Made by a program: the position numbers and the translations under genes
Shown here: piece after piece, positions 844 through 42,932 of the stretch
Layout: the number at the start of each line of letters is the position of its first letter
Numbering within the stretch: position 1 is the first letter of the stretch
DNA from: Candidatus Doudnabacteria bacterium
GTDB taxonomy: Bacteria > Patescibacteriota > Doudnabacteria > UBA920 > O2-02-FULL-48-8
DNA: 64,000 bases
Assembly (NCBI GenBank): GCA_039931165.1
Contig: JBDTSL010000003.1
Span: 10,349-74,348 of the forward strand
Direction of reading: 5' to 3'
The notes under the pieces: model-generated
What the model was told of the DNA's origin: nothing
What the model saw: only the letters and a program-made list of their open reading frames with translations
Databases searched by the model: none

Positions 844-1248
844 TTATACTTTCTGCGCTTTCTTCGCCAGAATTTCTTTGACTTTGGAAAATATTTCTTC
901 GGTTGTGTAGTAGGCCTTGACCATGTACTCGTCGATTTTTAGGTCTTTTGCCCGTTGGATCTCGGACTGGCTGTAAAGATTGCTTAATACTATCACCGAT
1001 GCGTTGGCGACCACAGGATCTGGGTCTTTGCGGATGGTCTCCAGAACCTGGAAGCCGTCCATTTCCGGCAGGCTCAGGTCCAGCAGGACGATGTCGGGTT
1101 TTTCCTTTTTCCAGACTTCCAAAGCTTCCTTGCCGTCAGAGGCCTCTATCACGGTAAAGCCGGGCGTAGCCGACAGTTTGTGGACCATGATCTCCCGCAT
1201 GGTCACGTCGTCTTCGACTGTCAGGATTTTGGTTAGTTTTTCAGCCAT
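844..1248 (-). CDS. Stand-alone response regulator receiver (CheY-like) protein
   Basis: The minus-strand ORF 844..1269 begins with TTG. The internal ATG gives 'MAEKLTKILTVEDD...IVLLDLSLPEMDGFQVL...KAYY', a typical REC-domain N-terminus with the acidic pocket. No output domain and no adjacent kinase. Confidence 0.8.
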   Translation of the reverse strand: MAEKLTKILTVEDDVTMREIMVHKLSATPGFTVIEASDGKEALEVWKKEKPDIVLLDLSLPEMDGFQVLETIRKDPDPVVANASVIVLSNLYSQSEIQRAKDLKIDEYMVKAYYTTEEIFSKVKEILAKKAQKV

Positions 1249-1317
1249 TGGTAGGTTTCTGAAGCTCAATATTGAATATAATAACTTTAACAGAAGTTGA
1301 TTTTTTTGGCAATATTC

Positions 1318-3118: not shown

Positions 3119-3610
3119 ATGCTAAGTCTCAAAGAAACGCTGGGCTATACGAACGACCAAGTACTCAACAAGTTTCGTACGCTGTACGAATTCTCACGGC
3201 CAGACGCCGAAGAGATCGCTCGAGAGACAAACCGATGGCTTTGGCTGAACGCTCGCCTTAAGGCAGACAGAAAAGAAGGACGCCAGAATATCCCGCGCGT
3301 TCTTGTAGTGCATGAAGGGATGGTGGTGCTGGACGAATACTGGCACACTTTCATTCTTCACACGCGCGATTACAGAGAGTTCTGCGATAGCCATCTGGGG
3401 TTTTTCATCCACCACTCCCCATCCTTTCCAGGGTTTCAGCCACCTTCTCAAGAGGAGGCAGAGGAGCAGCTGAATTACATCTGCGACAGAGTCGGCGACG
3501 AAACACTCATCAAGTGGTACGAAGAGTACCCCGTCAGATACTCGGCTGATGTACTGACGAAACTTCAGAGGCCGAAACAGTTCGGCCGGCCCTGTGAGGC
3601 GATTACATGA
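3119..3610 (+). CDS. DUF1399 / glycine-rich-domain-protein (GRDP)-like protein, paralogue 1
   Basis: 'RWLWLNARL...VVLDEYWHTFILHTRDYREFCDSHLGFFIHH' aligns with the paralogue at 12962-13441 ('RFLLLNATHPHIVPTREIDQFWHMHILDTYKYTQDCEDLFGHYLHH'). The W-H-x-H ... Y..DC pattern matches my recollection of Pfam DUF1399. Confidence 0.55.
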   Translation: MLSLKETLGYTNDQVLNKFRTLYEFSRPDAEEIARETNRWLWLNARLKADRKEGRQNIPRVLVVHEGMVVLDEYWHTFILHTRDYREFCDSHLGFFIHHSPSFPGFQPPSQEEAEEQLNYICDRVGDETLIKWYEEYPVRYSADVLTKLQRPKQFGRPCEAIT

Positions 3611-4281
3611 TGAAACAACCCGCAGCGTCACCAGAGCTCTGCGCGTCGCAAGTTCGAGAGCAAATTGATTTGGTGGGGTTCTCGATTGCGGAAGTCGGCG
3701 ATAGGGAAAACTATCTGACAATTTGCGGCATGTTAGGCTGCATTACCGGGACAAGAGATCTCAGTATACAGCCTGACAAGGTCGAGCGGTTTACTGGGTA
3801 TTCGTACAAGCCTGACGAAGTGCCGTTCCACACAGATAACCCGCTTGTCAATATCGTTGGGCTGTTCTGTGTGACGCCTGACGCGATTGGGGGTGAAAAC
3901 CTCCTCATTGATTCTCGGGACATCCTGAAAGAACTGACGGAGCAGGAGCGTGAGTGCCTGAAGCAGGTGCGTGTGCCCCTGCCCAAGAAAGAAGAGTGTC
4001 TCCCAGTTCTAACCGAGATCGATGGTCGGCCTCCGCATGTTTATTGGCTACCGGCGTTCACGTTAGCGATGACGGCGAAACTCGAGAAGGAGTACTCAGA
4101 AGCTGTTAATCGCTTCGACGAAGTGCTTCAAAATCATCGTGCTGCCAAGAGATGTCGTTCGATTCGGCTGAACACTGGTGAGGCGCTTTGGTTTGACAAT
4201 TTCGTCATGTTGCACGGGCGAGACCGACTCGAGGCATCCAGCAAACGGGCCCAAGTGCGGGTTTTCATCAAGTACGTTTGA
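3607..4281 (+). CDS. Fe(II)/2-oxoglutarate-dependent dioxygenase, TauD/TfdA (clavaminate-synthase-like) family
   Basis: 'PFHTDNP' is the HxD iron-binding motif. The C-terminal 'WFDNFVMLHGRDR' is the distal His plus Arg, as in the WDNR...H family motif. ATGA overlap with the upstream gene. Confidence 0.65.
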   Translation: MMKQPAASPELCASQVREQIDLVGFSIAEVGDRENYLTICGMLGCITGTRDLSIQPDKVERFTGYSYKPDEVPFHTDNPLVNIVGLFCVTPDAIGGENLLIDSRDILKELTEQERECLKQVRVPLPKKEECLPVLTEIDGRPPHVYWLPAFTLAMTAKLEKEYSEAVNRFDEVLQNHRAAKRCRSIRLNTGEALWFDNFVMLHGRDRLEASSKRAQVRVFIKYV

Positions 4282-4313
4282 CTGGAAATTTAAAATGGGA
4301 GGAGGTGATTTGC

Positions 4314-4397
4314 GTGACCCGTAAGGAGCGAATCAAGCGCATCGTGAAGAAGCTCAGCGCTAGCGACTGCTCTGCCTGCCAAGGCTGCACTAGCTAG
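4314..4397 (+). CDS. Unlisted 27-aa Cys-rich peptide (VTRKERIKRIVKKLSASDCSACQGCTS), candidate modified-peptide precursor
   Basis: Strong Shine-Dalgarno GGGAGGAGGTGA (4297-4308) lies 8 nt before a GTG start. Basic N-terminal half and a C-terminal core with three Cys and several Ser/Thr. A strong terminator follows immediately. Confidence 0.4.
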   Translation: MTRKERIKRIVKKLSASDCSACQGCTS

Positions 4398-4412
4398 CAT
4401 CGGCGTCGACGG

Positions 4413-4455
4413 TGTATCATGTATGTGAGTATACATGATACACTGTCATTTTTTT
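4413..4455 (+). terminator. Rho-independent terminator ending the GC-rich cassette
   Basis: GTGTATCATGTAT-gtgagt-ATACATGATACAC: perfect 13-bp stem followed by TGTCATTTTTTT. Confidence 0.8.
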
Positions 4456-4475: not shown

Positions 4476-5063
4476 ATGATCAGTAAGCTAAAAAAAGATT
4501 GGACGGAATATTTTGAGAATACAAAAGAGTACCCACCCTCAAAACTTCTTATTGAGGCTCTTTGCTATGTAAACAATAAACACAAGGCTATAGATATCGG
4601 TGGCGGGGCTCTGAAAGATACCCGTTATTTACTGTCACAAGGTTTTGATACTACAGTAATTGACAAAGAGGATCAAATGGCTACTTTTGCTCGAAAGTTA
4701 AAATCTGATAGATTGCATTATTTTATAACCACTTTTGCCAACTTTGATTTTCCAGAAAATGAGTATGATATTGCCTCGGCTATATATTCATTACCATTTA
4801 ATCTACCTGAAGATTTTGATTATGTTTTAATGAAAGTAAAAAATTCTTTGGTTAAAGGTGGTATTTTTTGTGGGCAATTCTTCGGAGAGCGCGATGATTG
4901 GCATATTAATCCGACAATGACTTTCCACTCAGGGGAAAAAGTTAAGACTTTACTCGCTGATATGAATATTCTTTTATTTGAGGAAAAAGAGTTTAAAGGT
5001 AAAACTGCGAATAATTCTCCTAAATATTGGCATGTGTTTAATGTCATAGCTAGAAAAAAATAG
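4476..5063 (+). CDS. Class I SAM-dependent methyltransferase (TehB/TPMT-like small-molecule methyltransferase)
   Basis: Motif I 'AIDIGGGALKDTRYLLSQGF' and an acidic motif II 'VIDKED'. 195 aa, AT-rich coding. Confidence 0.65.
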   Translation: MISKLKKDWTEYFENTKEYPPSKLLIEALCYVNNKHKAIDIGGGALKDTRYLLSQGFDTTVIDKEDQMATFARKLKSDRLHYFITTFANFDFPENEYDIASAIYSLPFNLPEDFDYVLMKVKNSLVKGGIFCGQFFGERDDWHINPTMTFHSGEKVKTLLADMNILLFEEKEFKGKTANNSPKYWHVFNVIARKK

Positions 5064-5170
5064 AAATATCCTGATTCCTCTTTTTAGACCCTTTTTTTAT
5101 TTGCTTGATTTTTTTGGCAAGATTCAGTAGAATAAATGGGTAAACTAAGAAAATAAGGAAACCAATATAA

Positions 5171-6721
5171 ATGAAAACTATCAATATTGACGGAAAAAGT
5201 TTGGACCTGGATTCAATCCTGTCGGTTTTAAACGATCCCGGTACAAAAGTAAATATCAGCGCCTCGACTCTCAAAAAGATCCAAAAGTCTGCTGATTTTT
5301 TAGGTAAAGAGATAATCAACTCAAAAGTTATTTACGGCATCAATACGGGATTTGGCCCCATGGCCTCTCATCTGATGGCCAGAGATCAGATAGTACAACT
5401 ACAGGAGAACCTGATCAGAAGCCATGCGGTGGGGGTAGGAGACCCTATGCCGGAAAAATTTGTTTTAGCAGCGATGATAATCCGGCTCAACACTTTGGCA
5501 GAAGGATATTCCGGAGCCTCGCAGGAATTGATCCAACAGCTCAAAATTTTCATCAATAAAAGAATAATCCCTGTGATTTTAGAACATGGGGGAGTGGGTG
5601 CCAGCGGCGATTTGGTCCAGCTGGCCCATATTGCTTTGGCTCTGATCGGTGAAGGCAAGGTTAATTATCAGGGAAAGACCCGGCCGACGTCCGATGTTCT
5701 GAAACAGTTGAAGATCAAGCCTTATCAGCTGAGACCGAAGGAAGGACTATCTCTGATTAACGGAACGTCTTTTATGTCCGGTATCGGGTCAGTGATATGC
5801 CATGACAGCGACATGCTTTTGAACTTAGCTATTAAAACCGGCGCGTGGTCTCTGGAACTGGTGAATGGTTATACCGACGGCTTTTCGGAAAAACTACATT
5901 CGTTGCGCCCGCATAAAGGCCAGGTGGCTGTCGCCCGGAAATTGAGGGAACTTTTGGCTAGCTCAAAGTTGCTGAAATCCCGCGAGTTGATAAACAAGCA
6001 GGTTAATCTTGGTTCTGATGTGAAAGAGATCCCGGAGTTTGTCCAGGAAGTTTATTCCATCCGCTGTATCCCGCAAATTTTGGGCCCAATTTACGATACG
6101 CTCCAGAAAACCAAACAGGTCATCGAAACCGAGATTAATTCCGTCACGGACAACCCGATCGTCTATGTGGATAAAAAGACATTCCTGCATGGAGGCAATT
6201 TCCACGGTGATTATATTTCATCCTCATTGGATCAGCTGAAGATGACATTGGTCAGGTTGACCATGCTGTCGGAGAGACGAGTCAACTTTTTTTTAAATCA
6301 CAATGTTAATAGATTTTTGCCCCCATTTATCAATTTAAACAAAATTGGATTAAACTTGGGCTTGCAAGCTCTGCAGTTTCCTGCAACTTCGACTACCGCG
6401 AAAAGCCAAACATTAGCATACCCCCAATATGTCCACTCCATCCCCACGAACGCGGACAACCAGGACATTGTCAGCATGGGCACAGACTCCGCACTTATCA
6501 CTACCCAAGTGGTGGATAATGCTTTTGTGGTTTTGGCTATAGAGTTGGTAACCTTGGCCCAGGCAGTGGATTATCTCAAATATCAAAACAAACTTTCTAA
6601 ATCCTCAAATGAACTTTATAAAGCAGTACGCCGGATCTTGCCCAAGGTTGTGGAAGACCGGATGATCGGATATGACCTAACAATGCTGGTATCAGAAGTA
6701 AAGAAAGGCGTTATAAAATAA
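5171..6721 (+). CDS. MIO-dependent aromatic amino acid ammonia-lyase / aminomutase (HAL/PAL/TAL family)
   Basis: 'HGGVGASGDLVQLAHIALALIGEG' carries the Ala-Ser-Gly triad that forms the MIO cofactor. 'YGINTGFGPMASHL' is also present. 516 aa. Confidence 0.85.
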   Translation: MKTINIDGKSLDLDSILSVLNDPGTKVNISASTLKKIQKSADFLGKEIINSKVIYGINTGFGPMASHLMARDQIVQLQENLIRSHAVGVGDPMPEKFVLAAMIIRLNTLAEGYSGASQELIQQLKIFINKRIIPVILEHGGVGASGDLVQLAHIALALIGEGKVNYQGKTRPTSDVLKQLKIKPYQLRPKEGLSLINGTSFMSGIGSVICHDSDMLLNLAIKTGAWSLELVNGYTDGFSEKLHSLRPHKGQVAVARKLRELLASSKLLKSRELINKQVNLGSDVKEIPEFVQEVYSIRCIPQILGPIYDTLQKTKQVIETEINSVTDNPIVYVDKKTFLHGGNFHGDYISSSLDQLKMTLVRLTMLSERRVNFFLNHNVNRFLPPFINLNKIGLNLGLQALQFPATSTTAKSQTLAYPQYVHSIPTNADNQDIVSMGTDSALITTQVVDNAFVVLAIELVTLAQAVDYLKYQNKLSKSSNELYKAVRRILPKVVEDRMIGYDLTMLVSEVKKGVIK

Positions 6722-6722
6722 A

Positions 6723-7826
6723 ATGTTGGAGCCACCGAGAATATTTAAGGACAAAAAAGATGCTCCGGCGAATGCCAAGGTCATAGACGCATTTTCGTCT
6801 TCACTGACAGAGCTTTTTTTTATTGCTCATCCTCATTTGAAGAAAGGAATGCCGGAGGTGGATGCTGAACTGCAAAAATATCTGGAAGCAAATACGATCC
6901 CGGATATTTGGATTTATTACCCCGAAACAAATACCCTAGTGCGTACCTTGCCGGAAGAGGAATATTTCAGGCTTCGGACGGCAAGAAATAGAGATTTAAT
7001 TTCAGAGCAGGAACAAAACAATTTTCGCAGCATTACCGTGGGCATCGCCGGATTATCGGTTGGGTCGTCGGTGTTAAATATCCTTGTTCTGAGCGGGGGC
7101 CCGAAAGTTCTGAAGATAGCCGATTTTGATACTTTAGAAGTCTCCAATTTAAACCGCATCAGAGCGGGCCTGGCCGATGTTGGCACAAACAAAACCGAGA
7201 TAGCGGCGAGGGAAGTTTGGGAGCTGGACCCTTTTGCACAGCTTAAGCTGTACCACGACGGACTGAACAAGGAAAATATTGAGGAATTTATCTTGGGAGA
7301 ACCTCGACTCGGGGTCTTCGTAGATGCCATGGACAGCATTGATCTTAAAATTTTAGCCAGATTGATATGCAAAAAAAATAAAATTCCCGTGCTTTCTGCT
7401 ACGGATAACGGCGACAGCGTAATTCTGGACATAGAAAGATTTGATCTGGAGCCCGGCCGGGAGATTTTTCACGGGCTGGTTAAAGATATAGAACAATTAG
7501 ACCTGGACCATCTTGATTATAAGTCTTGGCTTAATTTGGCTGCCCAGATAGTTGGCCCGGAATATTTAACCGAGTCAATGCAGGATTCAGTTCTTAAAAT
7601 CGGCAAATCATTGGCCAGCGTCCCGCAGTTAGGCGCCTCTGCGGCAATCGGGGGATCTGCTTGCAGTTTTGCTATCAGAAGGATTGCTAACAAGCAAGCT
7701 CTAAATTCAGGCCGCTCTATCATCAGTCTGGAAGAAAAATTAATCCCAGGGTTCGGCGACCCGGAGAGTGTTTTGTCGAGAAGCACAAAAACAGAACAAT
7801 TTGTCCGATCTTTCGGGCAAAAATAA
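6723..7826 (+). CDS. E1-like / ThiF-MoeB family adenylyltransferase with ~75-aa N-terminal extension
   Basis: 'RTARNRDLI...ITVGIAGLSVGS' is the Rossmann motif. 'KIADFDTLEVSNLNRI' is the canonical DxDxVExSNLNRQ motif. Confidence 0.8.
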   Translation: MLEPPRIFKDKKDAPANAKVIDAFSSSLTELFFIAHPHLKKGMPEVDAELQKYLEANTIPDIWIYYPETNTLVRTLPEEEYFRLRTARNRDLISEQEQNNFRSITVGIAGLSVGSSVLNILVLSGGPKVLKIADFDTLEVSNLNRIRAGLADVGTNKTEIAAREVWELDPFAQLKLYHDGLNKENIEEFILGEPRLGVFVDAMDSIDLKILARLICKKNKIPVLSATDNGDSVILDIERFDLEPGREIFHGLVKDIEQLDLDHLDYKSWLNLAAQIVGPEYLTESMQDSVLKIGKSLASVPQLGASAAIGGSACSFAIRRIANKQALNSGRSIISLEEKLIPGFGDPESVLSRSTKTEQFVRSFGQK

Positions 7827-7827
7827 T

Positions 7828-9267
7828 ATGACGCAAGAAATAAAAAATATACTGAATATTTTTCACACTGCCGCCAGGGAAGTGCCTGCTTACAGAAGTT
7901 TTTTGAAGGCCAATAAGATAGATCCGAAAAAAATAAAAATGTTCGAGGATTTTGAACGCCTGCCGATAATGGATAAACATAATTTTATTCATAAATATCC
8001 GTTTGAGCAGTCGTTCAGCAGAAAAAAAATTCCCGCCATGATCTCCGCTTCATCGGGCTCATCCGGCAAGCCCACATTTTGGCCGCGGGATGATTTACAG
8101 GAGCAGCACGGAGGCGAGATCCACCTGCGGATCTTCAGGGATATTTTCGGCATCAAGCCAGACCAGCCGACCCTGGTAATTGACTGTTTTGCTACCGGCA
8201 TCTGGGTAGCGGGTAATTTTACCCTGTCATCCTGCCGTTACGTCTCGCGCCAGGGGTATAATTTGACCTCCGTAACGCCGGGCATTGAAATAGAGGATAT
8301 CCTCAGCTGTATTAAAATTTTAGGGCCCCATTTTAAAAACGTGATCATAGCCGGATATCCGCCGTTTATGATGGACGTCTTCGTGGAAGCGATCAAAAGG
8401 GGAATTAAAATTCCAAAAAATCTCAAGGTTATGACTTCCGGAGATAAGTTTTCCGAAGAATGGAGAGATGCCGTGTTAAAATTGCTTCATCTGGACGGCT
8501 TGAGTTCTGTCATAAGCGTCTACGGCTGCGCCGACGCGTCATTGCTGGGATTTGAAACTGCCGCGAGCATTTTTTTACGAAGAAAATCCCTTGAGGTTCC
8601 TCAACTTTACCATCGCCTATTCGGTTCCGAAAAATCACTGCCGACTATTTTGCAATACGATCCCAAATACGTATTTTTTGAAGAAAATGGCCAGGAATTG
8701 ATTTTTACCGCCAACACCAGCATCCCTTTGATCCGCTACAATATTCATGATGTGGGAAACGTACTTACTCATCAGGAAGCTGCTGCGATCTTATCCGAAT
8801 ATAAGCTTTTGGAAGAAGCAAATCGTCACGGATTTAAGGATTGGCAGCTGCCGTTTGTGGTAAAAAAGGGACGAACCGATGTCGCGGTAACTTTTTACGC
8901 ATTAAATATTTATCCCGAGGACATCCTAGCCGGAATTGAGGATCGCAGAGTAAAAAAGTTTTTAACTGGAGACTTTTTTTCATACAACCAAGATATCAAG
9001 AACCACAAACAGCAAAAATTGTTCATTAAGCTGCAGCTTTCGCCAAAGACAAAACTTTCCGCAAAAATAAAAGAACTGATAGGCAACAGCATTGTTGAGA
9101 ATTTGAAAAAGACCAGCACCGAGTACCGCAAATTATTTGCAGCTATCGGCAATAGAGCATTGCCAGAAATTTTATTTACCAAAAGCAAGGATTTTAAGAT
9201 CGATCATCACCGAGGCCTGATTGATATTCAAGGGAAAAAACCGAAAGTCACATTGGGGGAAAAATAA
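7828..9267 (+). CDS. PaaK-like adenylate-forming enzyme (phenylacetate-CoA ligase / coenzyme F390 synthetase family)
   Basis: 'ISASSGSSGKPTFWP' is the ANL P-loop, placed near residue 80 as in PaaK. The ORF-track start at 7768 overlaps the upstream gene. The internal ATG at 7828 ('MTQEIKN') abuts the upstream stop. Confidence 0.65.
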   Translation: MTQEIKNILNIFHTAAREVPAYRSFLKANKIDPKKIKMFEDFERLPIMDKHNFIHKYPFEQSFSRKKIPAMISASSGSSGKPTFWPRDDLQEQHGGEIHLRIFRDIFGIKPDQPTLVIDCFATGIWVAGNFTLSSCRYVSRQGYNLTSVTPGIEIEDILSCIKILGPHFKNVIIAGYPPFMMDVFVEAIKRGIKIPKNLKVMTSGDKFSEEWRDAVLKLLHLDGLSSVISVYGCADASLLGFETAASIFLRRKSLEVPQLYHRLFGSEKSLPTILQYDPKYVFFEENGQELIFTANTSIPLIRYNIHDVGNVLTHQEAAAILSEYKLLEEANRHGFKDWQLPFVVKKGRTDVAVTFYALNIYPEDILAGIEDRRVKKFLTGDFFSYNQDIKNHKQQKLFIKLQLSPKTKLSAKIKELIGNSIVENLKKTSTEYRKLFAAIGNRALPEILFTKSKDFKIDHHRGLIDIQGKKPKVTLGEK

Positions 9268-9277
9268 TTAGAACTTT

Positions 9278-10333
9278 ATGGAAACAAACATTAAAAAAAT
9301 TTTGGAAATAGCGGTTCTTGCTCCTTCTGGGGACAATTCCCAACCTTGGAAATTTTCTATCAAAGACGATACATTGTATGTGATTCTTGTTCGAAATGCT
9401 GATGATTCAGCTTATAATTTTATGGAGCGAGGATCTTTGATCGGCCATGGGGCAGTATTAGAAAATATTAATATTATTTCGCGGCATCTAGGCCTCAATG
9501 CCAATATACAACTTTTCCCGGAAGGCAAAAATTCAGACCTGGTTGCTAAAATTTCATTTCTGCCTACCGCAAACCAAGACACTGGTCTGTTTGAAGCTAT
9601 AGAAAAGCGTTGCACTAATAGGAAGCAGTATAAAGCACTGAATATTTCAGCAAATCATGAAAAGGAAATTCTTTCAATACCATTAGAAAAACCACTACTT
9701 AACTTTTCTTTATTGAAAGATAGGGCGAAAATTACAGATTTGGCCAACACCATAAATCTCAACGAAAGAATGTTTCTGGAAAATTATTATGTACATAAAG
9801 GATTATTTGGTTTTATCAGATGGACAAAGGAAGAGGAGCTGAAATATAAAACAGGTATGTATATAAAAACCTTGGAGCTCCAACCTCCTCAGGAATTTGC
9901 GATGAAGATATTTAGAAGGTGGCCGATAATTAATTTTTTTAACAAATTTAACATTGCGGCTATGGTAGCGAAAGACAGCGCTAAACTTTACACCACTTCG
10001 GCTGCGTTTGGTTTAATTACGGCTCCAGATTTATCCGAAGAAAGTTTAATCGCTACGGGCAGAATGATGCAGAGGATTTGGCTCACCGCTACAAAATTAG
10101 GTGTGAGTATGCAGCCTACTGCAGGCTTGCTTTATTTGGCTCAAAGAGTAAACGAGGAGGGAACCAAAATATTTTCGGCCAAACACGTTGAAATGCTAAA
10201 GACTGCAGAACAAAAAATAAAAGGAATATTTAAATTGTCAAACGAAGTTCCAACTTTGCTTTTTCGTTTGGGATATGCCGATCCTCCTTCCGCCACATCA
10301 ATAAAACATCCTTATTTATTAAAAAATATATGA
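9278..10333 (+). CDS. Nitroreductase-family flavoprotein, tandem-domain (~350 aa) type
   Basis: The N-terminal 'VLAPSGDNSQPWKF' matches the nitroreductase signature. The length is roughly twice a canonical NfsB fold. Confidence 0.7.
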   Translation: METNIKKILEIAVLAPSGDNSQPWKFSIKDDTLYVILVRNADDSAYNFMERGSLIGHGAVLENINIISRHLGLNANIQLFPEGKNSDLVAKISFLPTANQDTGLFEAIEKRCTNRKQYKALNISANHEKEILSIPLEKPLLNFSLLKDRAKITDLANTINLNERMFLENYYVHKGLFGFIRWTKEEELKYKTGMYIKTLELQPPQEFAMKIFRRWPIINFFNKFNIAAMVAKDSAKLYTTSAAFGLITAPDLSEESLIATGRMMQRIWLTATKLGVSMQPTAGLLYLAQRVNEEGTKIFSAKHVEMLKTAEQKIKGIFKLSNEVPTLLFRLGYADPPSATSIKHPYLLKNI

Positions 10334-11058
10334 AAAACAAATTGTTTTTTCCAAAAAGGATTCCCGAACCTACCGCTATGGGAAAAATTGAATCAGAGGT
10401 CTTCGAAAAAATGTCCAAAGAAAATTATCAAAGATGGATCCTGCCTCTTGTGGATGATCTGGAACGATTTATGGATAATAAAAACCGTACTATCCTTGAT
10501 ATTGGCTCAGGACCGGGGCTTTTGGTCAAAGAGATAGCAATACGCTTCAAGCAGTCGAAAGTAATTGGGCTGGATAATTCTGCAGTTGCAGTAAAATTAG
10601 CTAGAAAGAATTGCATAAAACAAAGAAATGTCAGCTTTGTTGTCGGGGACGCTACCAAATTACAATTCAAGAGCCAATCTTTCGATCTTGTCGTATGTAA
10701 AGATACCCTGCACCATTTTCCGAAAGTTAAGACTTGTATCAAAGAGATGCTTCGGGTCCTGAAAGATGGAGGAACTCTATATATCCAAGACTTAAGAAGA
10801 GATTTACCTCATTATTTGCTGAAGCAGGCGATGCCGCCGGACACGGTTATGAAAAAGCTCCAATATTATTCCGCACGCGCTGCTTATACTAAAGATGAGT
10901 TGAAAAAAATACTGAAGGAATTAGGTGTGCGCAAACTGAATATTCAAACAAAAAAAGTCACACCTCAAATGGCTAAAAAGTACAGGAAATTGAACGTGGA
11001 CCTGACCAGACTTAAGCAAAGTTTTATTACCCGGTACGTGGCAACAATAAAAAAATAG
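10330..11058 (+). CDS. Class I SAM-dependent methyltransferase
   Basis: Motif I 'ILDIGSGPGLL', motif II 'VIGLDNS' and 'LRVLKDGGTLYI' are present. ATGA overlap with the nitroreductase gene. Confidence 0.8.
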   Translation: MKNKLFFPKRIPEPTAMGKIESEVFEKMSKENYQRWILPLVDDLERFMDNKNRTILDIGSGPGLLVKEIAIRFKQSKVIGLDNSAVAVKLARKNCIKQRNVSFVVGDATKLQFKSQSFDLVVCKDTLHHFPKVKTCIKEMLRVLKDGGTLYIQDLRRDLPHYLLKQAMPPDTVMKKLQYYSARAAYTKDELKKILKELGVRKLNIQTKKVTPQMAKKYRKLNVDLTRLKQSFITRYVATIKK

Positions 11059-12738
11059 ATGAATCCAAGCATTTTTCAGAACATACGGAACATTGACCTC
11101 TTGTCGGTCGGAATTGCCACTGCTTCTATTGGGATAATGGGTTTTATCATTTATTTTAATGATAAAAAGAACAGCATCAATCAGACTTTTCTGGCCCTGT
11201 CCGTGATGGGCATTTTTTGGAGTGCTTTTAATTATTTAAGTTATCAATTTTACGACCCGGTTGTGGTAATTTGGCTGATCCGAATTGCCGTCTTTTTTGC
11301 AGTGTGGTTTTCTTTTTCTATTTTTAGGTTATTTTATATTTTTCCAAATAAAAGCCCAGAATTTGTAAAGGCATATTATTACTTATTTATTCCGATAACA
11401 GTTGTTTCGTCACTGCTAAACTTAACCCCATTGGTGTTTACCCGAGTGACTGCATTTACTGAGGGGCGGGTGTCGGAAGTGGCCAACGGACCTGCTATTG
11501 CTTTGTTTGGAATCGTTGTATTCGGGTTGGTCGGATGTGGCATATATTTGTTAGTTAAAAAAATCAGGCGGACTAAAGGAGTTGAAAGAAAGCAACTCGA
11601 CTTAATATTTTTCGGAATAACCATTACTTGTTTATTGCTGATAATTTTCAATTTTATTTTACCGGCCTTTTTAAACAATGCCGCTTATATTTCTTTTGGC
11701 GCGGTATTTTTGTTTCCTTTCATAGCTCTTACCGCTTACTCTATAATTAAACTGCATTTGTTTGATGTAAAAGTGTTTGCGACCGAAGTATTAACTTTTG
11801 TGCTCTCAATAGTTAATTTAATTGAGATTGTGACCGCAAAAGATACCCTGACGTTTGTTTTTCGTCTATCTATGTTCGCATTAGTATTAGGTTTTGGAAT
11901 TTTGCTGATAAGGAGCGTGCAAAAGGAAGTAGAGCTTAGGCGTCAACTGCAAATCTTAGACAAAGAACTTGAGGCCGCGAATGCGCAGCTGAAGATTTTG
12001 GACCAGGCCAGGGCCGAGTTTATCACTATCGCGTCCCATCAGCTTCGCACGCCGCCGGCCACTATCAAGTGGTATTTGGCCTCCATTCTGGACGGGGATT
12101 ATGGCAAGATGGACGCGGCAGTGCATGAACAGCTTCGTAAAACCGCTTCAACCAATGGTTCAATGATCTCGCTGATCGACGATCTGCTGAATGTTTCTAG
12201 GATTGAGCGGGGCAAGATGGAATTTATTTTCCAGCCCACGGATATGGCGGAGATCACCCAGATCACGGTTGACCAGCTCCTGCCGCAGGCGGAAATGAGA
12301 AAACTGCAGTTGATCTACGAAAAGCCGAAAGTACCCCTGCCGATAATCAACGCCGATAAAGAAAAACTGCGCCAGGTTATCAATAATTTGATTGATAATG
12401 CTATTAAATATACCCCGAAAGGTTCGATCACGGTCCAGCTCAGCCAGACCAAGGATGACATCATGGTGAAAGTCACCGATACGGGCAAAGGAGTAGATAA
12501 GGAACATCTCAAAAACGTATTTATAAAATTCGAACGCGGTAAAATTCCCGCTAAAAACTCCACCGGTCTGGGACTGGGGCTGTATGTGGCCAAAGTCATA
12601 GTCGAACAGCATAAAGGCAAGATCTGGGTCGAGTCGCCGGGCGTGGGTAAAGGCTCGAGCTTTATTTTCACCGTGCCGATCAAAGGCGAGGTCAACACCA
12701 CGGAATTCGACCTGACCAAGACCCAAACACCGGCTTGA
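11059..12738 (+). CDS. Sensor histidine kinase with polytopic (~7 TM) N-terminal sensor domain
   Basis: H-box 'ITIASHQLRTPPATIKWY', N-box 'NNLIDNAIKYT' and G-boxes 'DTGKGV' and 'GLGLYVAKVIVEQHKG'. Starts 1 nt after the methyltransferase stop. Confidence 0.85.
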   Translation: MNPSIFQNIRNIDLLSVGIATASIGIMGFIIYFNDKKNSINQTFLALSVMGIFWSAFNYLSYQFYDPVVVIWLIRIAVFFAVWFSFSIFRLFYIFPNKSPEFVKAYYYLFIPITVVSSLLNLTPLVFTRVTAFTEGRVSEVANGPAIALFGIVVFGLVGCGIYLLVKKIRRTKGVERKQLDLIFFGITITCLLLIIFNFILPAFLNNAAYISFGAVFLFPFIALTAYSIIKLHLFDVKVFATEVLTFVLSIVNLIEIVTAKDTLTFVFRLSMFALVLGFGILLIRSVQKEVELRRQLQILDKELEAANAQLKILDQARAEFITIASHQLRTPPATIKWYLASILDGDYGKMDAAVHEQLRKTASTNGSMISLIDDLLNVSRIERGKMEFIFQPTDMAEITQITVDQLLPQAEMRKLQLIYEKPKVPLPIINADKEKLRQVINNLIDNAIKYTPKGSITVQLSQTKDDIMVKVTDTGKGVDKEHLKNVFIKFERGKIPAKNSTGLGLGLYVAKVIVEQHKGKIWVESPGVGKGSSFIFTVPIKGEVNTTEFDLTKTQTPA

Positions 12739-12794
12739 AACGTATCTAGAGATAACAAAAAAACCTCGACATTAGTCGGGATTTTTTTAAATAT

Positions 12795-12886: not shown

Positions 12887-12961
12887 TTACACTTCATAAT
12901 GATTTGGTCGGCAATTCCGCAGGCCGCAATCACTCGTAAGCAACAATCGAAAAGAGGAATC

Positions 12962-13441
12962 ATGGAAATTCCGTCGACATTGGAAAACAAGTTGGCGAAT
13001 CTCGATCTCGAGCCGATCAAGGTCAAGCTCATGGATGCCGAAGAAGGGCCGGGTTGGTCGCTCAAGATGTGCGACTCGGTGGAGGTGCTTTACAAGCGCT
13101 TCCTGCTGCTCAACGCAACACATCCGCACATCGTTCCGACGCGAGAGATTGACCAGTTCTGGCACATGCACATTCTCGACACTTACAAGTACACCCAGGA
13201 CTGCGAAGACCTGTTCGGCCACTACTTACATCACTTCCCGTACTTTGGTATGCGGGGTGCCAGTGATGCCAGCGATTTGAAGCTGGCATTTGCCAATACG
13301 CTGGCTCTGTACGCTGCCAAGTACGGCGAACCGCTTGAAACGGCAGCGGCGATGTGCAACTGCTGTGACGATGGCGGCGGAGTGACACAGGGTGATCTCA
13401 AGGCCATTCGACCGACAATCGACCGATCACTCGCGATGTGA
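12962..13441 (+). CDS. DUF1399 / GRDP-like protein, paralogue 2 (GC-rich)
   Basis: 'YKRFLLLNATHPHIVPTREIDQFWHMHILDTYKYTQDC'. The RBS AAGAGGA precedes the ATG at 12962, so the longer 12899 start is unlikely. Confidence 0.55.
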   Translation: MEIPSTLENKLANLDLEPIKVKLMDAEEGPGWSLKMCDSVEVLYKRFLLLNATHPHIVPTREIDQFWHMHILDTYKYTQDCEDLFGHYLHHFPYFGMRGASDASDLKLAFANTLALYAAKYGEPLETAAAMCNCCDDGGGVTQGDLKAIRPTIDRSLAM

Positions 13442-13452
13442 AGGCTCATACA

Positions 13453-13487
13453 GGGGGATAAGTTGCTTTCCCCCTCTTTTTTTAAAT
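13453..13487 (+). terminator. Rho-independent terminator
   Basis: GGGGGA-taagttgctt-TCCCCC followed by TCTTTTTTTT. Confidence 0.6.
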
Positions 13488-13496
13488 CTATTAGAT

Positions 13497-14168
13497 ATGA
13501 TCACATTCTATACTAAATTAGCGAATTTATATGATAAAACCTATCTGAAAAAAGATTATCAGAAAGAAGTTTTATATTTGAAAAAATTTATTAAAGGTTC
13601 AGTTTTGGATGTTGGTTGTGGAACAGGTCGACATTTACAATATTTGAAAGATCACATACGAATTGGATTAGATAAAAGTTTGCAATTAATTAAACTTGCG
13701 AAACAAAATAATCCAGGGATTAAGTTTTTGCAAGGGGACATTGTTAATTTTAAAATTAATCAGAAATTTGATACGATTATCAGTTTGTTTACAGTGATTG
13801 CTTACCTAAATTCTAAGCAACTTGAGGAAGCTATTAATAATTTAGTCAGTCATTTGAACTCTAAAGGAATTTTAATTTTAGAACCTTTCGCTGAACCAAA
13901 AACCTTGTCATTGAAACCTTGGTTTAATTCCTATAATTCACCAACTTTAAAATTTACTCGATATGTGACTCTCAAAAAAATTAGAAATATAGCTAAACTA
14001 AATATTCAATGGTGGGTTAATGGAAATACTATTAAAGAAGTTCAACATTTATCATTATTTAAGCATAAACATATCATCAAATTATTAAATAAATATTGTG
14101 TTAAAGTCGAGTATTTGCCACCAACGCATTTATTTAGATACGGACTATTTGTGGCTAGAATTTCTTGA
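13497..14168 (+). CDS. Class I SAM-dependent methyltransferase (AT-rich)
   Basis: Motif I 'VLDVGCGTGRH' and motif II 'RIGLDKS'. The internal start 'MITFYTKL' was chosen because the longer ORF overlaps the upstream gene in a different frame. Confidence 0.7.
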   Translation: MITFYTKLANLYDKTYLKKDYQKEVLYLKKFIKGSVLDVGCGTGRHLQYLKDHIRIGLDKSLQLIKLAKQNNPGIKFLQGDIVNFKINQKFDTIISLFTVIAYLNSKQLEEAINNLVSHLNSKGILILEPFAEPKTLSLKPWFNSYNSPTLKFTRYVTLKKIRNIAKLNIQWWVNGNTIKEVQHLSLFKHKHIIKLLNKYCVKVEYLPPTHLFRYGLFVARIS

Positions 14169-14239
14169 ATATAAAAATAGTTAAGGGAACTATATACCTA
14201 AATCGGCTGGATCGCTTCACAAAAATATCTTTTCTTGAA

Positions 14240-14345
14240 TCGAACAGCGTAAAGGCAAGATCTGGGTCGAGTCGAAAGGGGAGGTAAAGGCGAGGTCAAC
14301 ACCACGGAATTCGACCTGACCAAGACCCAAACACCGGCTTGAAAT
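14240..14345 (+). pseudogene. Truncated duplicate of the 3' end of the histidine-kinase gene (direct repeat of 12602-12740 with a 35-bp internal deletion)
   Basis: 'CGAACAGCGTAAAGGCAAGATCTGGGTCGAGTCG' and 'AAAGGCGAGGTCAACACCACGGAATTCGACCTGACCAAGACCCAAACACCGGCTTGAAA' recur at 12602-12740. Confidence 0.8.
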
Positions 14346-14411
14346 ATATCGCCCGATTTGTTAGAATTGGTTAGCGTTCGGGCGTAGCTCAGCGGTAGAG
14401 CAGCTGACTGT

Positions 14412-14981
14412 GAACAAGTTCTTAAAGGCGGCATAAAGGTCTTATTTTATGCCAAAAGAGAAGAGAACATATTCCGACCGTTCTCAATACATTATCCAGG
14501 CGGTTACCAAGAGACGTAAAAAGCTCAGGGAAATGGCTAGGGTGTATAAAGGCGGTAAATGTATGATCTGTGGTTACGATCGCTGTCTAGGAGCGCTTGA
14601 TTTTCACCACATTGATCCTTCCAAGAAAAAGTTTGGAATATCCATGAACGGATTAACCAAATCTTGGGATAAGATCAAAGGCGAACTGGATAAGTGCATC
14701 TTAATTTGCGCGAATTGCCACAGAGAAATCCATGCAGGAATTACGCAGCTTCCTGGGGAAACCCAGGTTGAAAAACGAGGTGAACTCGGGGAAGCCCTGC
14801 ACCAGTAATCGGTACAGGGTAATCCCGAGCCAAGCTCCGACTTTTCAGTCGGAGAAGGTGTAGAGACTATCCCGCAAGGGAGTACTCCCAGCCCTTTCTT
14901 CGAAAGTGCTGGGCGGAAGCGCCTCGGACCCCTAATAGGGTTATGATATAGTCCATACTAAAGGCGACTTTAGATTAAATG
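14412..14981 (+). ncRNA. Group I self-splicing intron (570 nt) carrying an HNH endonuclease ORF
   Basis: Conserved core elements: R-like 'GAGACTA' (14863-14869) and S-like 'GATATAGTCC' (14944-14953), which form P7 (GACTA/TAGTC). Terminal G (omegaG) at 14981. Confidence 0.65.
14449..14808 (+). CDS. HNH homing endonuclease encoded within the group I intron
   Basis: 'CMICGYDRCLGALDFHHIDP...CILICANCHREIH' gives CxxC ... HH ... CxxCH, the HNH zinc-finger and catalytic motif. Confidence 0.8.
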   Translation: MPKEKRTYSDRSQYIIQAVTKRRKKLREMARVYKGGKCMICGYDRCLGALDFHHIDPSKKKFGISMNGLTKSWDKIKGELDKCILICANCHREIHAGITQLPGETQVEKRGELGEALHQ

Positions 14982-15284: not shown

Positions 15285-16256
15285 TCAGACGCCAACTGAA
15301 TGTCGTACATGCTGTATCATTTTTACAATCGCTGCGACCACAGCTTCAGGCTGTTCAATTTGAATGCGGTGACCACTTTGATCTGCAAAGAACTGTTGGC
15401 TGTCAGTCGATAACTCTAAGAGGCTGGCCTGCGCGGCGGTGTGTTTGGCATCCTTATCTTTGCCGCGCGATAGAACGATTAAAGGCAATGCTCCCAGCGT
15501 GGTCACAGCCCTGGCTTGGGCTCCTCCTTCGGACATCCCCATGCCTTCGTCTAGGAAGGTTTGGACGGAACGGGGAGCCACGGAAAAAGCTGTAAAAGCT
15601 TGCTTATTCTCTGACGGTAGGTTTTCAATCGCGCCGAGCGGGCCTGCCAGCAAACGCACCAAACCGATGCGAGCCATCAAAGACGGCAAGGAATTTTTAC
15701 CAGGTTGCGGAGCTGGCTTAGGATTGGCACCGGAAGCGGGCAGGTCTTGGGCATCAATCAGCACCAACCCGGAGACTTCGGCCGGATAGTCATGAGTATA
15801 CACCCGCACGGTATATCCTCCGAGCGAATGGCCAACTAGTACATACGGTCCGTGTTCGTTGTCCTTAGCCAGTAAGGTATGTAATTCTTCAGCGAATTTA
15901 CGGGCGGTTCGCGGCTCGGGACTGGTCTCGCTCCATCCCATTCCTGCTCGATCATAACTGCAAACACGAGTGGTCTTAGCAACTTCGGGCTGCACCCAAC
16001 CCCAGACGGCGGACGAATCCCCCCATCCAGATTCGATTATCACAGTAGGGCTGCCAGTACCGGTGCAATTGATATGCAGGCGGTATCCGCCGACGTCAAC
16101 CATACGACCTGGAGGCGGGTAGGTACGCGCATCAGCCGCTTCAGATTTATTCTCGTAAATAGTGCCTGTTATTATTAAAAATAATAGAACCAGCACCGCT
16201 CTTGCGAGCCAAACTAACAGTTTTTGACCTCTACGGGCTAGAGTGAGTTTATTCAT
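15285..16256 (-). CDS. Alpha/beta-hydrolase fold protein (esterase/lipase-like), N-terminal membrane anchor, GC-rich
   Basis: Nucleophile elbow 'GHSLGG' and N-terminal TM 'LLVWLARAVLVLLFLIITG'. GC content is clearly above the surrounding sequence. Confidence 0.75.
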   Translation of the reverse strand: MNKLTLARRGQKLLVWLARAVLVLLFLIITGTIYENKSEAADARTYPPPGRMVDVGGYRLHINCTGTGSPTVIIESGWGDSSAVWGWVQPEVAKTTRVCSYDRAGMGWSETSPEPRTARKFAEELHTLLAKDNEHGPYVLVGHSLGGYTVRVYTHDYPAEVSGLVLIDAQDLPASGANPKPAPQPGKNSLPSLMARIGLVRLLAGPLGAIENLPSENKQAFTAFSVAPRSVQTFLDEGMGMSEGGAQARAVTTLGALPLIVLSRGKDKDAKHTAAQASLLELSTDSQQFFADQSGHRIQIEQPEAVVAAIVKMIQHVRHSVGV

Positions 16257-42548: not shown

Positions 42549-42932
42549 TGGTGGAGCTGGGGAGAATTGCACTCCCGTCCAAGAGATTTCAATAAATATT
42601 TCTACAAGTTTAGACCGCTTGAATTGTTACCCAAAACCATAGAAGCGGACTAAAGCGGTTTTGGCTAAGCCCTTAGTGTCCTTTGTCAGTCGGGCGTCAG
42701 ACAAAGTGAGTCCGAATAATATAACACCCGTATTCCACGCACAGACTTTGCGGAGCGGATGGGTTATCGCTTATTAAGCAACAGCCATAGCCGGAGAGAA
42801 CGCAAAAGCATTCTTTACGGTTTTTACCAATGAATTGGCATTTATGATTTGCCTTATCTTTTTAACCGAGAGATTAGGCTAATCGGACTTGCAATATTTA
42901 TCAAAGAACTCTTGTCGAATCTGAGCAGCCCC
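42549..42932 (-). ncRNA. ssrA: tmRNA (ssrA), 384 nt, immediately downstream of smpB
   Basis: 5' end GGGGCUGCUCAGAUUCGACAAG. 3' end GGACGGGAGUGCAAUUCUCCCCAGCUCCACCA. The acceptor stem has the G3-U70 Ala identity pair. An internal tag-like ORF reads ...AFAFSPAMAVA followed by TAA TAA. Confidence 0.85.

Follow-up and report, generated by a model that had tools for sequence, protein, structure and literature searches.

What does a closely packed run of enzyme genes make when its last gene encodes a membrane sensor kinase? The question is raised by a 64,000-nt stretch of DNA (here called the window, whose numbering gives all positions) from a metagenome-assembled genome (MAG) of Candidatus Doudnabacteria (Patescibacteria). 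An earlier reading of the sequence alone (the original prediction) had listed seven plus-strand open reading frames (ORFs), and calling ORFs on the window found all of them. Every family assignment was also confirmed: a 4-methylideneimidazole-5-one (MIO) lyase, a ThiF-like enzyme, a PaaK-like ligase, a tandem nitroreductase, two methyltransferases, and a seven-transmembrane (7TM) sensor kinase. However, the claim that the combination matches nothing described did not hold, since the ThiF-like and nitroreductase genes correspond by homology to the two halves of a known type of oxazolone synthetase. We propose with moderate confidence that the operon at 5171 to 12738 encodes a variant of the oxazolone or N-acyl-dehydroamino-acid pathways that is coupled to its own sensor kinase.

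The six genes of this operon are separated by 1 nt at the lyase-ThiF (6721/6723) and ThiF-ligase (7826/7828) junctions and by 10 nt between the ligase and the oxidase (9267/9278); the oxidase and a methyltransferase overlap by a 4-nt ATGA (10333/10330), and the methyltransferase and kinase genes abut with no gap (11058/11059). These junctions make the operon tightly packed. The predicted spacing of 0 to 4 nt is therefore seen at four junctions but not between the ligase and the oxidase. To place the genes in a wider context, one genome per species was scanned, which gave 50 related loci in which ORFs were called and searched with the window proteins; co-occurrence was counted in the 37 loci with full flanks. 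The ligase is present in all 37, and the ThiF-like enzyme and the 7TM histidine kinase are present in 34 each. The tandem nitroreductase is found in at least 29 and the MIO lyase in 20. The nitroreductase figure is an undercount because some copies are divergent or lie on the opposite strand. At least five gene orders occur, and that of the window (lyase-ThiF-ligase-oxidase-kinase) is the most common, with 11 loci. The original prediction had staked its reading on whether the E1-like, PaaK-like, and nitroreductase genes recur together in other genomes, and they are clearly co-conserved. Because the genes are real, tightly packed, and found together in 50 loci from genomes of different species, chance adjacency is excluded. 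The predicted cassette is widespread in Patescibacteria, so its presence in a reduced genome is not the oddity it had seemed, and a search of the accessible literature found no description of it in that group.

Two Streptomyces loci encode the ligase and the ThiF-like enzyme without a 7TM kinase (L047, 454 to 4117; L054, 8345 to 12479); the first also has a nitroreductase, and the second has a BagA/FevW-like tyrosine ammonia-lyase (TAL). Thus, the biosynthetic module exists beyond Patescibacteria. The Patescibacteria-type ligase was also seen on contigs labeled as Binatia (L010), Legionella (L040), and Gammaproteobacteria (L049) MAGs, with the cassette full in the first and mostly present in the last. 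These labels could reflect mis-binning or horizontal transfer.

The predicted ThiF-like ATP-dependent cyclase (6723 to 7826, plus strand) matches the NCBIfam model NF005901 (Rv1355c family protein) with an E value of 1.5e-88 over profile positions 36 to 344 of 722, and the next-best ThiF family scores only 9e-18. Because the ThiF domain (PF00899) starts at residue 88, the predicted N-terminal extension is real. It is not unusual, however, but a feature of the Rv1355c family. Residues 15 to 340 align with residues 18 to 336 of a 708-aa Rv1355c family protein at 34% identity, and this alignment takes in the extension. The reference protein was obtained by tblastn of the ThiF-like protein against plasmids, a search that matched only actinobacterial Rv1355c-family or ThiF genes. 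The top 120 homologues of the ThiF-like protein were all unfused Patescibacteria proteins, with neither OxzB nor TrzS among them, and the GxGxxG, NLNR, and Asp motifs are kept across 46 ThiF-like sequences.

The tandem-nitroreductase flavin-dependent oxidase (FDO; 9278 to 10333, plus strand) matches NF011424 (E, 8e-63), positions 376 to 712 of the same NF005901 model (E, 7.5e-56), and the Acg family (E, 1e-42). It aligns over its full length with residues 364 to 694 of the 708-aa reference, and its APSGxNxQPW and RxTNR motifs are conserved in the Patescibacteria set. For both enzymes, conservation was compared at the level of motifs rather than of the individual TrzS residues D217, R540, and Q651. 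The NF005901 model was built for the fused protein and has a cutoff of 476 bits; the two halves score 297.8 and 189.7 bits alone, for a rough sum of 487.5. A single gene separates those for the two halves in the window, and in many other loci they are immediate neighbors. RiPP-type ThiF (RiPP, ribosomally synthesized and posttranslationally modified peptide), SagB, and YcaO models had no match in the window cassette. By homology, then, the ThiF-like and nitroreductase genes are an Rv1355c/TrzS-OxzB oxazolone synthetase split by the ligase gene, with the first encoding its N-terminal half as a separate protein and the second encoding its C-terminal half, a putative Cα/Cβ desaturase. This assignment explains three items in the original prediction, i.e., the E1-like enzyme (one of its two carboxylate-activating enzymes), the flavin dehydrogenase, and the N-terminal extension. 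Rv1355c is TrzS, which has been shown experimentally to cyclize N-acyl tryptophan with ATP and then desaturate it with O2 to yield N-acyl tryptazolones (PMC12856293). TyzA, TyzB, and TyzC make C12-tyrazolone in M. tuberculosis (PMC10404671). OxzB is likewise a ThiF-nitroreductase oxazolone synthetase, and its substrate is the N-acyl tyrosine supplied by OxzA.

The gene between the two halves (7828 to 9267, plus strand) encodes a PaaK-family adenylate-forming ligase. Its longest ORF starts at a GTG at 7768, and the ATG at 7828 gives a 479-aa protein identical to protein P0001 of a Doudnabacteria MAG. The ligase has no Pfam match, an SSGSSGKPT P-loop, and weak matches to PDB entry 2y4o and TIGR02155 (45.6 bits, versus an equivalog cutoff of 646); no paa catabolic genes lie near it. 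More than 800 homologues were found, almost all in Patescibacteria, and a profile search placed 776 clusters (50% identity) at an E value of 1e-30 or better. Judged by sequence, the ligase is a distinct clade of the PaaK superfamily that lacks a Pfam model. Its AlphaFold2 model (pLDDT, 89.9) has the PaaK/ANL two-domain fold with the P-loop and C-terminal lysine, and the GKK at residues 469 to 471 is nearly invariant. In a Foldseek search, the best matches were PaaK1 (E, 4e-21), PaaK2, and BT_0428, followed by NatL2, AjiA1, and ClxA. These last three are PaaK-family enzymes that need no coenzyme A (CoA) and transfer an adenylated aryl acid straight to a second substrate, with which it forms an ester or amide.

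The operon encodes no acyl-CoA-dependent N-acyltransferase of the OxzA, TyzA, TrzA, or NasY type, and 51 loci were without any recurrent acyltransferase family. The ligase is fused to the ThiF-like enzyme in three proteins (P0331, P0399, and P0413), and the fusions take the form of an 880-aa ThiF-ligase, an 863-aa ligase-ThiF, and a 1,242-aa ScyB-like dehydrogenase-ligase-ThiF protein. The gene for the longest fusion lies between nitroreductase and 7TM kinase genes and is uninterrupted in two assemblies; with no internal stop codon under translation table 11, read-through of a stop codon was ruled out as the source of the fusions. Because no acyltransferase recurs, the ligase is always present, its structural neighbors include direct-coupling enzymes, and it is fused to ThiF, we infer that it makes the N-acyl amino acid, whether directly or by way of a CoA thioester. 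It would thus be an acyl-acid:amino-acid ligase that replaces the N-acyltransferase of the known pathways.

Next, we considered the source of the acyl group. The MIO-dependent aromatic amino acid ammonia-lyase (5171 to 6721, plus strand; PF00221, E, 1e-163) carries the Ala-Ser-Gly motif (GASGD), in place of which most FlxA-like relatives have Thr-Ser-Gly (GTSGD). Its best NCBIfam model is FlxA_rubin_TAL at 639 bits (cutoff, 700), ahead of hutH at 478 bits (cutoff, 539). The original prediction noted the His-Leu pair of GFGPMASHL (H67-L68) and read it as tyrosine directed if it aligned with the selectivity switch. These were the wrong residues, since the switch is S84-H85, which aligns without gaps with S82-H83 of the histidine ammonia-lyase (HAL) of Pseudomonas putida and is HAL-like. 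Motif 2 contains Gln (DNQD), as in tyrosine aminomutase, whereas HALs have Glu, and the C-terminal region of the lyase resembles tyrosine aminomutase most closely. FlxA, which has the same pair of motifs (Ser-His plus Gln), is a TAL with an approximately 1,000-fold preference for Tyr over Phe and no detectable activity on His, and its partner FlxY is a PaaK-like 4-coumarate ligase (PMC3992019). It is only because the characterized FlxA, a strict TAL, has this pattern that tyrosine is favored. Given this caveat, the lyase is most likely a tyrosine ammonia-lyase that would yield 4-coumarate, and the predicted specificity probably stands on other residues than those first proposed.

The lyases encoded beside the ligase fall by NCBIfam match and motifs into four groups: FlxA-like, Patescibacteria-specific, BagA/FevW-like (Streptomyces), and phenylalanine ammonia-lyase-like. 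The second Patescibacteria lyase type has an insertion of about 10 residues directly ahead of the switch region. Three cassettes without an MIO lyase have a ScyB-like aromatic amino acid dehydrogenase between ThiF and the ligase; in a fourth, the gene immediately upstream encodes a more distant ELFV dehydrogenase. The lyases and the dehydrogenases have in common that they strip an aromatic amino acid of its alpha-amino group to give a carboxylic acid, which fits a step that supplies the acyl donor. Many cassettes encode no such gene; the acyl donor is therefore not universal, and the acid can come from elsewhere.

The final gene (11059 to 12738, plus strand) encodes a membrane sensor histidine kinase in which, by Pfam, a HisKA_7TM bundle and two further helices precede HisKA and HATPase domains. 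The AlphaFold2 model of residues 1 to 310 (pLDDT, 87.9) has nine helices and a beta-hairpin; the seven-helix bundle comes first, then the two further helices, the hairpin loop, and a long helix that runs on to HisKA. Pfam detected no PAS domain in the kinase, sensor alignments contained no invariant cysteine, and Foldseek with the sensor domain returned no significant solved match or ligand-binding homologue. Weak resemblances to 7TM proteins of the G protein-coupled receptor type (E, 5e-3 or worse; TM score, 0.43 to 0.51) were not interpreted. The kinase adjoins the cassette in 34 of the 37 full-context loci across five gene orders, and the proposal that it belongs to the operon is borne out: it is an integral, conserved member. 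A sensor homologue with 48% identity, found independently of the enzymes, lies directly after a ligase-ThiF-nitroreductase set and has two receiver genes upstream. A single-domain receiver is encoded at most 3 kb from the cassette in 15 of 51 loci. In the window, a single-domain response regulator (844 to 1269, minus strand) matches cassette-side receivers (phmmer E, 2e-13) and NCBIfam receiver models and is a candidate partner of the kinase. From its linkage, the kinase may sense the product of the pathway.

In some lineages, the kinase has pilus genes of the T2SSF type, receiver proteins, and a PilB-type ATPase fused to a receiver beside it (L003, 15972 to 19353; L060, 1491 to 5095), which hints that type IV pili could be an output. 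L059 and L060 (approximately 6200 to 10300) have distant HisKA_7TM kinases beside a PF01553 acyltransferase and a Methyltransf_20 protein rather than ThiF, ligase, or nitroreductase genes. These loci may represent another pairing of synthase and sensor in Patescibacteria, and because distant 7TM kinases adjoin other small-molecule enzymes, a general pairing of this kind is suggested.

Taken together, these assignments suggest a route in which the FlxA-like lyase, judged by its family and motifs, would convert tyrosine to 4-coumarate. The PaaK-family ligase would then adenylate the acid and attach it to an amino acid at the amino group; it would form the N-acyl amino acid in place of the acyl-CoA N-acyltransferase of the known pathways. 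By homology to TrzS, TyzB, and OxzB, the ThiF-like enzyme would adenylate the carboxylate of this N-acyl amino acid and close the oxazolone ring, and the tandem-nitroreductase flavoprotein, as a homologue of TyzC and of the TrzS FDO domain, would desaturate the Cα/Cβ bond. In this sublineage, a methyltransferase may tailor the product. The product or its ring-opened form would be a hydrophobic, conjugated, electrophilic molecule. Finally, on the basis of gene linkage, the 7TM histidine kinase may sense the product or the ring-opened N-acyl-dehydroamino acid and signal to the single-domain response regulator.

The closest known system is TrzAS (Rv1356c/Rv1355c) of mycobacteria and Rhodococcus, with which the cassette shares the NF005901 family, the N-terminal extension, and the nucleotide- and flavin mononucleotide-binding motifs. 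Unlike in TrzAS, the two halves are separate proteins whose genes flank that of the ligase, and a TrzA-type acyl-CoA N-acyltransferase is missing. In addition, the source of the acyl group is probably the lyase rather than the acyl-CoA pool, the operon includes a sensor kinase, and the host is a member of the Patescibacteria rather than the Actinomycetota. OxzAB of Pseudoalteromonas rubra and TyzACB of M. tuberculosis share the same logic of an N-acyl aromatic amino acid that undergoes ATP-dependent cyclization and then flavin-dependent desaturation, as do, in the same three stages, the NasY-ThiF-nitroreductase clusters for stieleriacines, thalassotalic acids, and kyonggic acids. TyzB and TyzC are unfused like the cassette enzymes, and the Stieleria clusters also place a methyltransferase with the ThiF and nitroreductase genes. 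However, all of these systems use fatty acyl-CoA and an N-acyl amino acid synthase where the cassette has a PaaK-family ligase and a deaminating lyase or dehydrogenase, and none has a linked histidine kinase.

Two other comparisons bear on the acid-activating steps. FlxA/FlxY, which initiates flexirubin synthesis, has the same Ser-His switch and motif 2 Gln and pairs its lyase with a PaaK-family ligase, but the relation of the ligase studied here to FlxY is remote (E, 1.5e-4), and ketosynthase, acyl carrier protein, and polyene genes are missing. Initiation of a flexirubin or aryl polyene was rejected because the ketosynthase and acyl carrier protein genes are absent. The benzoxazole-pathway enzymes NatL2, AjiA1, and ClxA share the PaaK fold and couple an aryl acid directly without CoA before a heterocycle is formed. 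They differ in having 13 to 14% identity, other substrates, and an amidohydrolase as partner cyclase where the cassette has the ThiF-like enzyme, and direct coupling by the Patescibacteria ligase is a predicted activity. Autoinducer circuits such as Agr likewise cotranscribe the genes for biosynthesis with that for a polytopic membrane histidine kinase and have a response regulator close by. The likeness to them is of logic only, with no sequence relationship, and here the signal would be a small acylated amino acid derivative rather than a peptide.

Several points weigh against the proposed pathway. The chemical steps in the Patescibacteria members are all assigned from homology or inference, and the nitroreductase half shares just 20% identity with the Rv1355c family reference. 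Instead of forming the amide, the ligase could make a CoA thioester for an acyltransferase whose gene lies elsewhere. The lyase scores under the FlxA equivalog cutoff, aminomutase activity is conceivable for it, and about 45% of cassettes lack a lyase, most of these also lacking a dehydrogenase. Some related producers yield ring-opened N-acyl dehydrotyrosines and not oxazolones. The link to the kinase is purely positional. The kinase could instead control the operon on detecting a different cue.

This last point leads to the rival that survives best, in which the metabolite is made as proposed but is no signal (e.g., a pigment, UV screen, antimicrobial, or envelope component) and the kinase answers to an unrelated cue. 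Known oxazolones and N-acyl dehydrotyrosines lack an established signaling role, and some are antimicrobial; the Streptomyces loci keep ligase and ThiF genes without the kinase, and the sensor domain has no solved ligand-binding homologue. Against this stand the retention of the kinase beside the enzymes despite repeated rearrangement of the gene order, the translational abutment of its gene to the enzyme genes in the window, and the distant kinases of the same type that adjoin other small-molecule enzymes. We regard a nonsignal product as less likely but plausible, and it deserves more weight than any of the remaining rivals.

The original prediction allowed for either a small-molecule or a peptide-modifying pathway; co-conservation bears out the former, and the latter found no support. 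In a peptide pathway, the ThiF-like enzyme would modify a peptide or protein C terminus by MccB or PaaA RiPP chemistry, and its substrate would be the kinase or a 27-aa peptide encoded upstream. ThiF-like enzymes do act mostly on peptides, proteins, or tRNA (PMC12596934), and the C-terminal residue of a peptide is formally an N-acyl amino acid. The candidate peptide, VTRKERIKRIVKKLSASDCSACQGCTS, is encoded by a small Cys/Ser/Thr-rich ORF (4314 to 4397) with a GGAGG ribosome-binding site. It closes a block of three genes (3119 to 4447) that looks like a small RiPP-like unit, in which the first gene encodes a 163-aa protein with no family match and overlaps the gene for a TauD-like dioxygenase (3607 to 4281). 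However, this block has a GC content of 52.5%, versus 41% for the cassette, and ends in a terminator with an 18-bp stem (4408 to 4447). Neither the 27-aa peptide nor the TauD-like dioxygenase was found in any of the 50 related loci, and with the differing GC content and the intervening terminator, the peptide was rejected as a RiPP substrate. Moreover, the ThiF-like enzyme groups with small-molecule oxazolone synthetases and not with RiPP-type families, and a lyase or dehydrogenase with a ligase, fused to ThiF in some genomes, fits a small-molecule route. Peptide chemistry is thus very improbable here. The sole homologue of the 163-aa protein (30% identity; E, 1e-13) is encoded at 12051 to 12527 on the minus strand of L038, in a Saccharibacteria cassette, where its gene separates those for the ligase and ThiF.

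The pairing of a TAL with an aryl-acid ligase makes the chromophore of photoactive yellow protein (PYP). With the kinase always adjacent, one could therefore propose that the lyase and the ligase make a 4-coumaroyl chromophore that is bound covalently to the kinase as a PYP-like light sensor. The kinase lacks both the PAS/PYP domain and the invariant cysteine that this would call for, and the ThiF-like enzyme and nitroreductase, which are more conserved than a lyase missing from nearly half of the cassettes, would be left without explanation, so we give this idea even less credence than peptide chemistry. Least probable of all is ordinary HutH histidine catabolism beside unrelated housekeeping ThiF/MoeB, PaaK, and nitroreductase genes, which the HAL-like Ser-His switch and a best PDB sequence match labeled "probable histidine ammonia-lyase" might suggest but which is effectively refuted by a hutH score under both its own cutoff and the FlxA score, by the motif 2 Gln, and by the gene context, including the strong co-conservation and domain fusions and the lack of hutU, hutI, or any other hut gene, as predicted, among the window ORFs (the ORF list was inspected, and selected large ORFs were scanned against Pfam).

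The original prediction had counted the methyltransferases in the combination. MT2 (10330 to 11058, plus strand) is a UbiE/BioC-like S-adenosylmethionine-dependent enzyme (Pfam Methyltransf_31/11/25) that is translationally coupled in the oxidase-kinase interval. A homologue lies inside the cassette in only 3 of 50 loci, in the same interval in L010 and L029 and in the ligase-oxidase interval in L025. MT1 (4476 to 5063, plus strand; weak Methyltransf_25/TehB matches) had been taken as the leading member of the operon. It is a neighbor gene that lies behind the 4408 to 4447 terminator, has a GC content of 33%, and ends 107 nt before the lyase gene. None of the related loci has an MT1 homologue next to the cassette; the sole match is about 5.8 kb past the kinase in L027. 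For these reasons, both methyltransferases are accessory, and MT1 is probably outside the conserved cassette. A protein of about 305 aa with an LGSGGMEVERQ motif and no Pfam match is encoded directly upstream of the kinase gene in three cassettes (L028, 3948 to 4862; L032, 8453 to 9385; L046, 12524 to 13468) and directly downstream in L050 (8202 to 9146). It is probably a methyltransferase unrelated to MT2.

Consensus scans placed a promoter-like site (TTGATT-17-TAGAAT; 5105 to 5133, plus strand), weak evidence in itself, in the gap before the lyase gene and a terminator-like hairpin with a T-run (12765 to 12780, plus strand) 27 nt past the kinase stop codon. Beyond the kinase, 12899 to 14808 holds genes for a 180-aa protein with no family match, a third methyltransferase (13392 to 14168), and a weak HNH-like ORF (14449 to 14808). 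An alpha/beta hydrolase is encoded 2.5 kb downstream (15285 to 16256, minus strand), and hydrolases occur within some cassettes, namely, an M19 membrane dipeptidase in L024 (11529 to 12470) and an alpha/beta hydrolase in L061 (8732 to 9607). These hydrolases may process or open the oxazolone ring. An Rfam scan of the window found only a transfer-messenger RNA (42549 to 42932, minus strand; RF00023, 125 bits).

Oxazolone and N-acyl-dehydroamino-acid pathways were discovered only between 2021 and 2025. Relative to those known, the cassette is new in its ligase in place of an acyltransferase, its modular acid-supply enzyme, and its near-constant sensor kinase, and its natural fusions are ready-made candidates for biocatalysis. 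The role of oxazolones is unresolved, and signaling has been suggested from chemical resemblance and neighboring cyclic di-GMP genes (PMC12856293). With a membrane sensor kinase accompanying the core enzymes in almost all loci of the cassette, this idea becomes testable. The genomes of Patescibacteria are tiny, and very little is known of their secondary metabolism or signaling; such a widespread, conserved module is therefore informative on their interactions with hosts or kin. Tentatively, and with less confidence than we place in the pathway itself, the cassette may be a self-contained communication module of Patescibacteria, in which an aryl-acyl oxazolone or dehydroamino acid autoinducer would be made from scavenged aromatic amino acids and perceived by a dedicated 7TM receptor kinase. 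If this is true, it would be the first defined signal-receptor pair in the candidate phyla radiation and would provide both the first physiological role and the first receptor for oxazolones.

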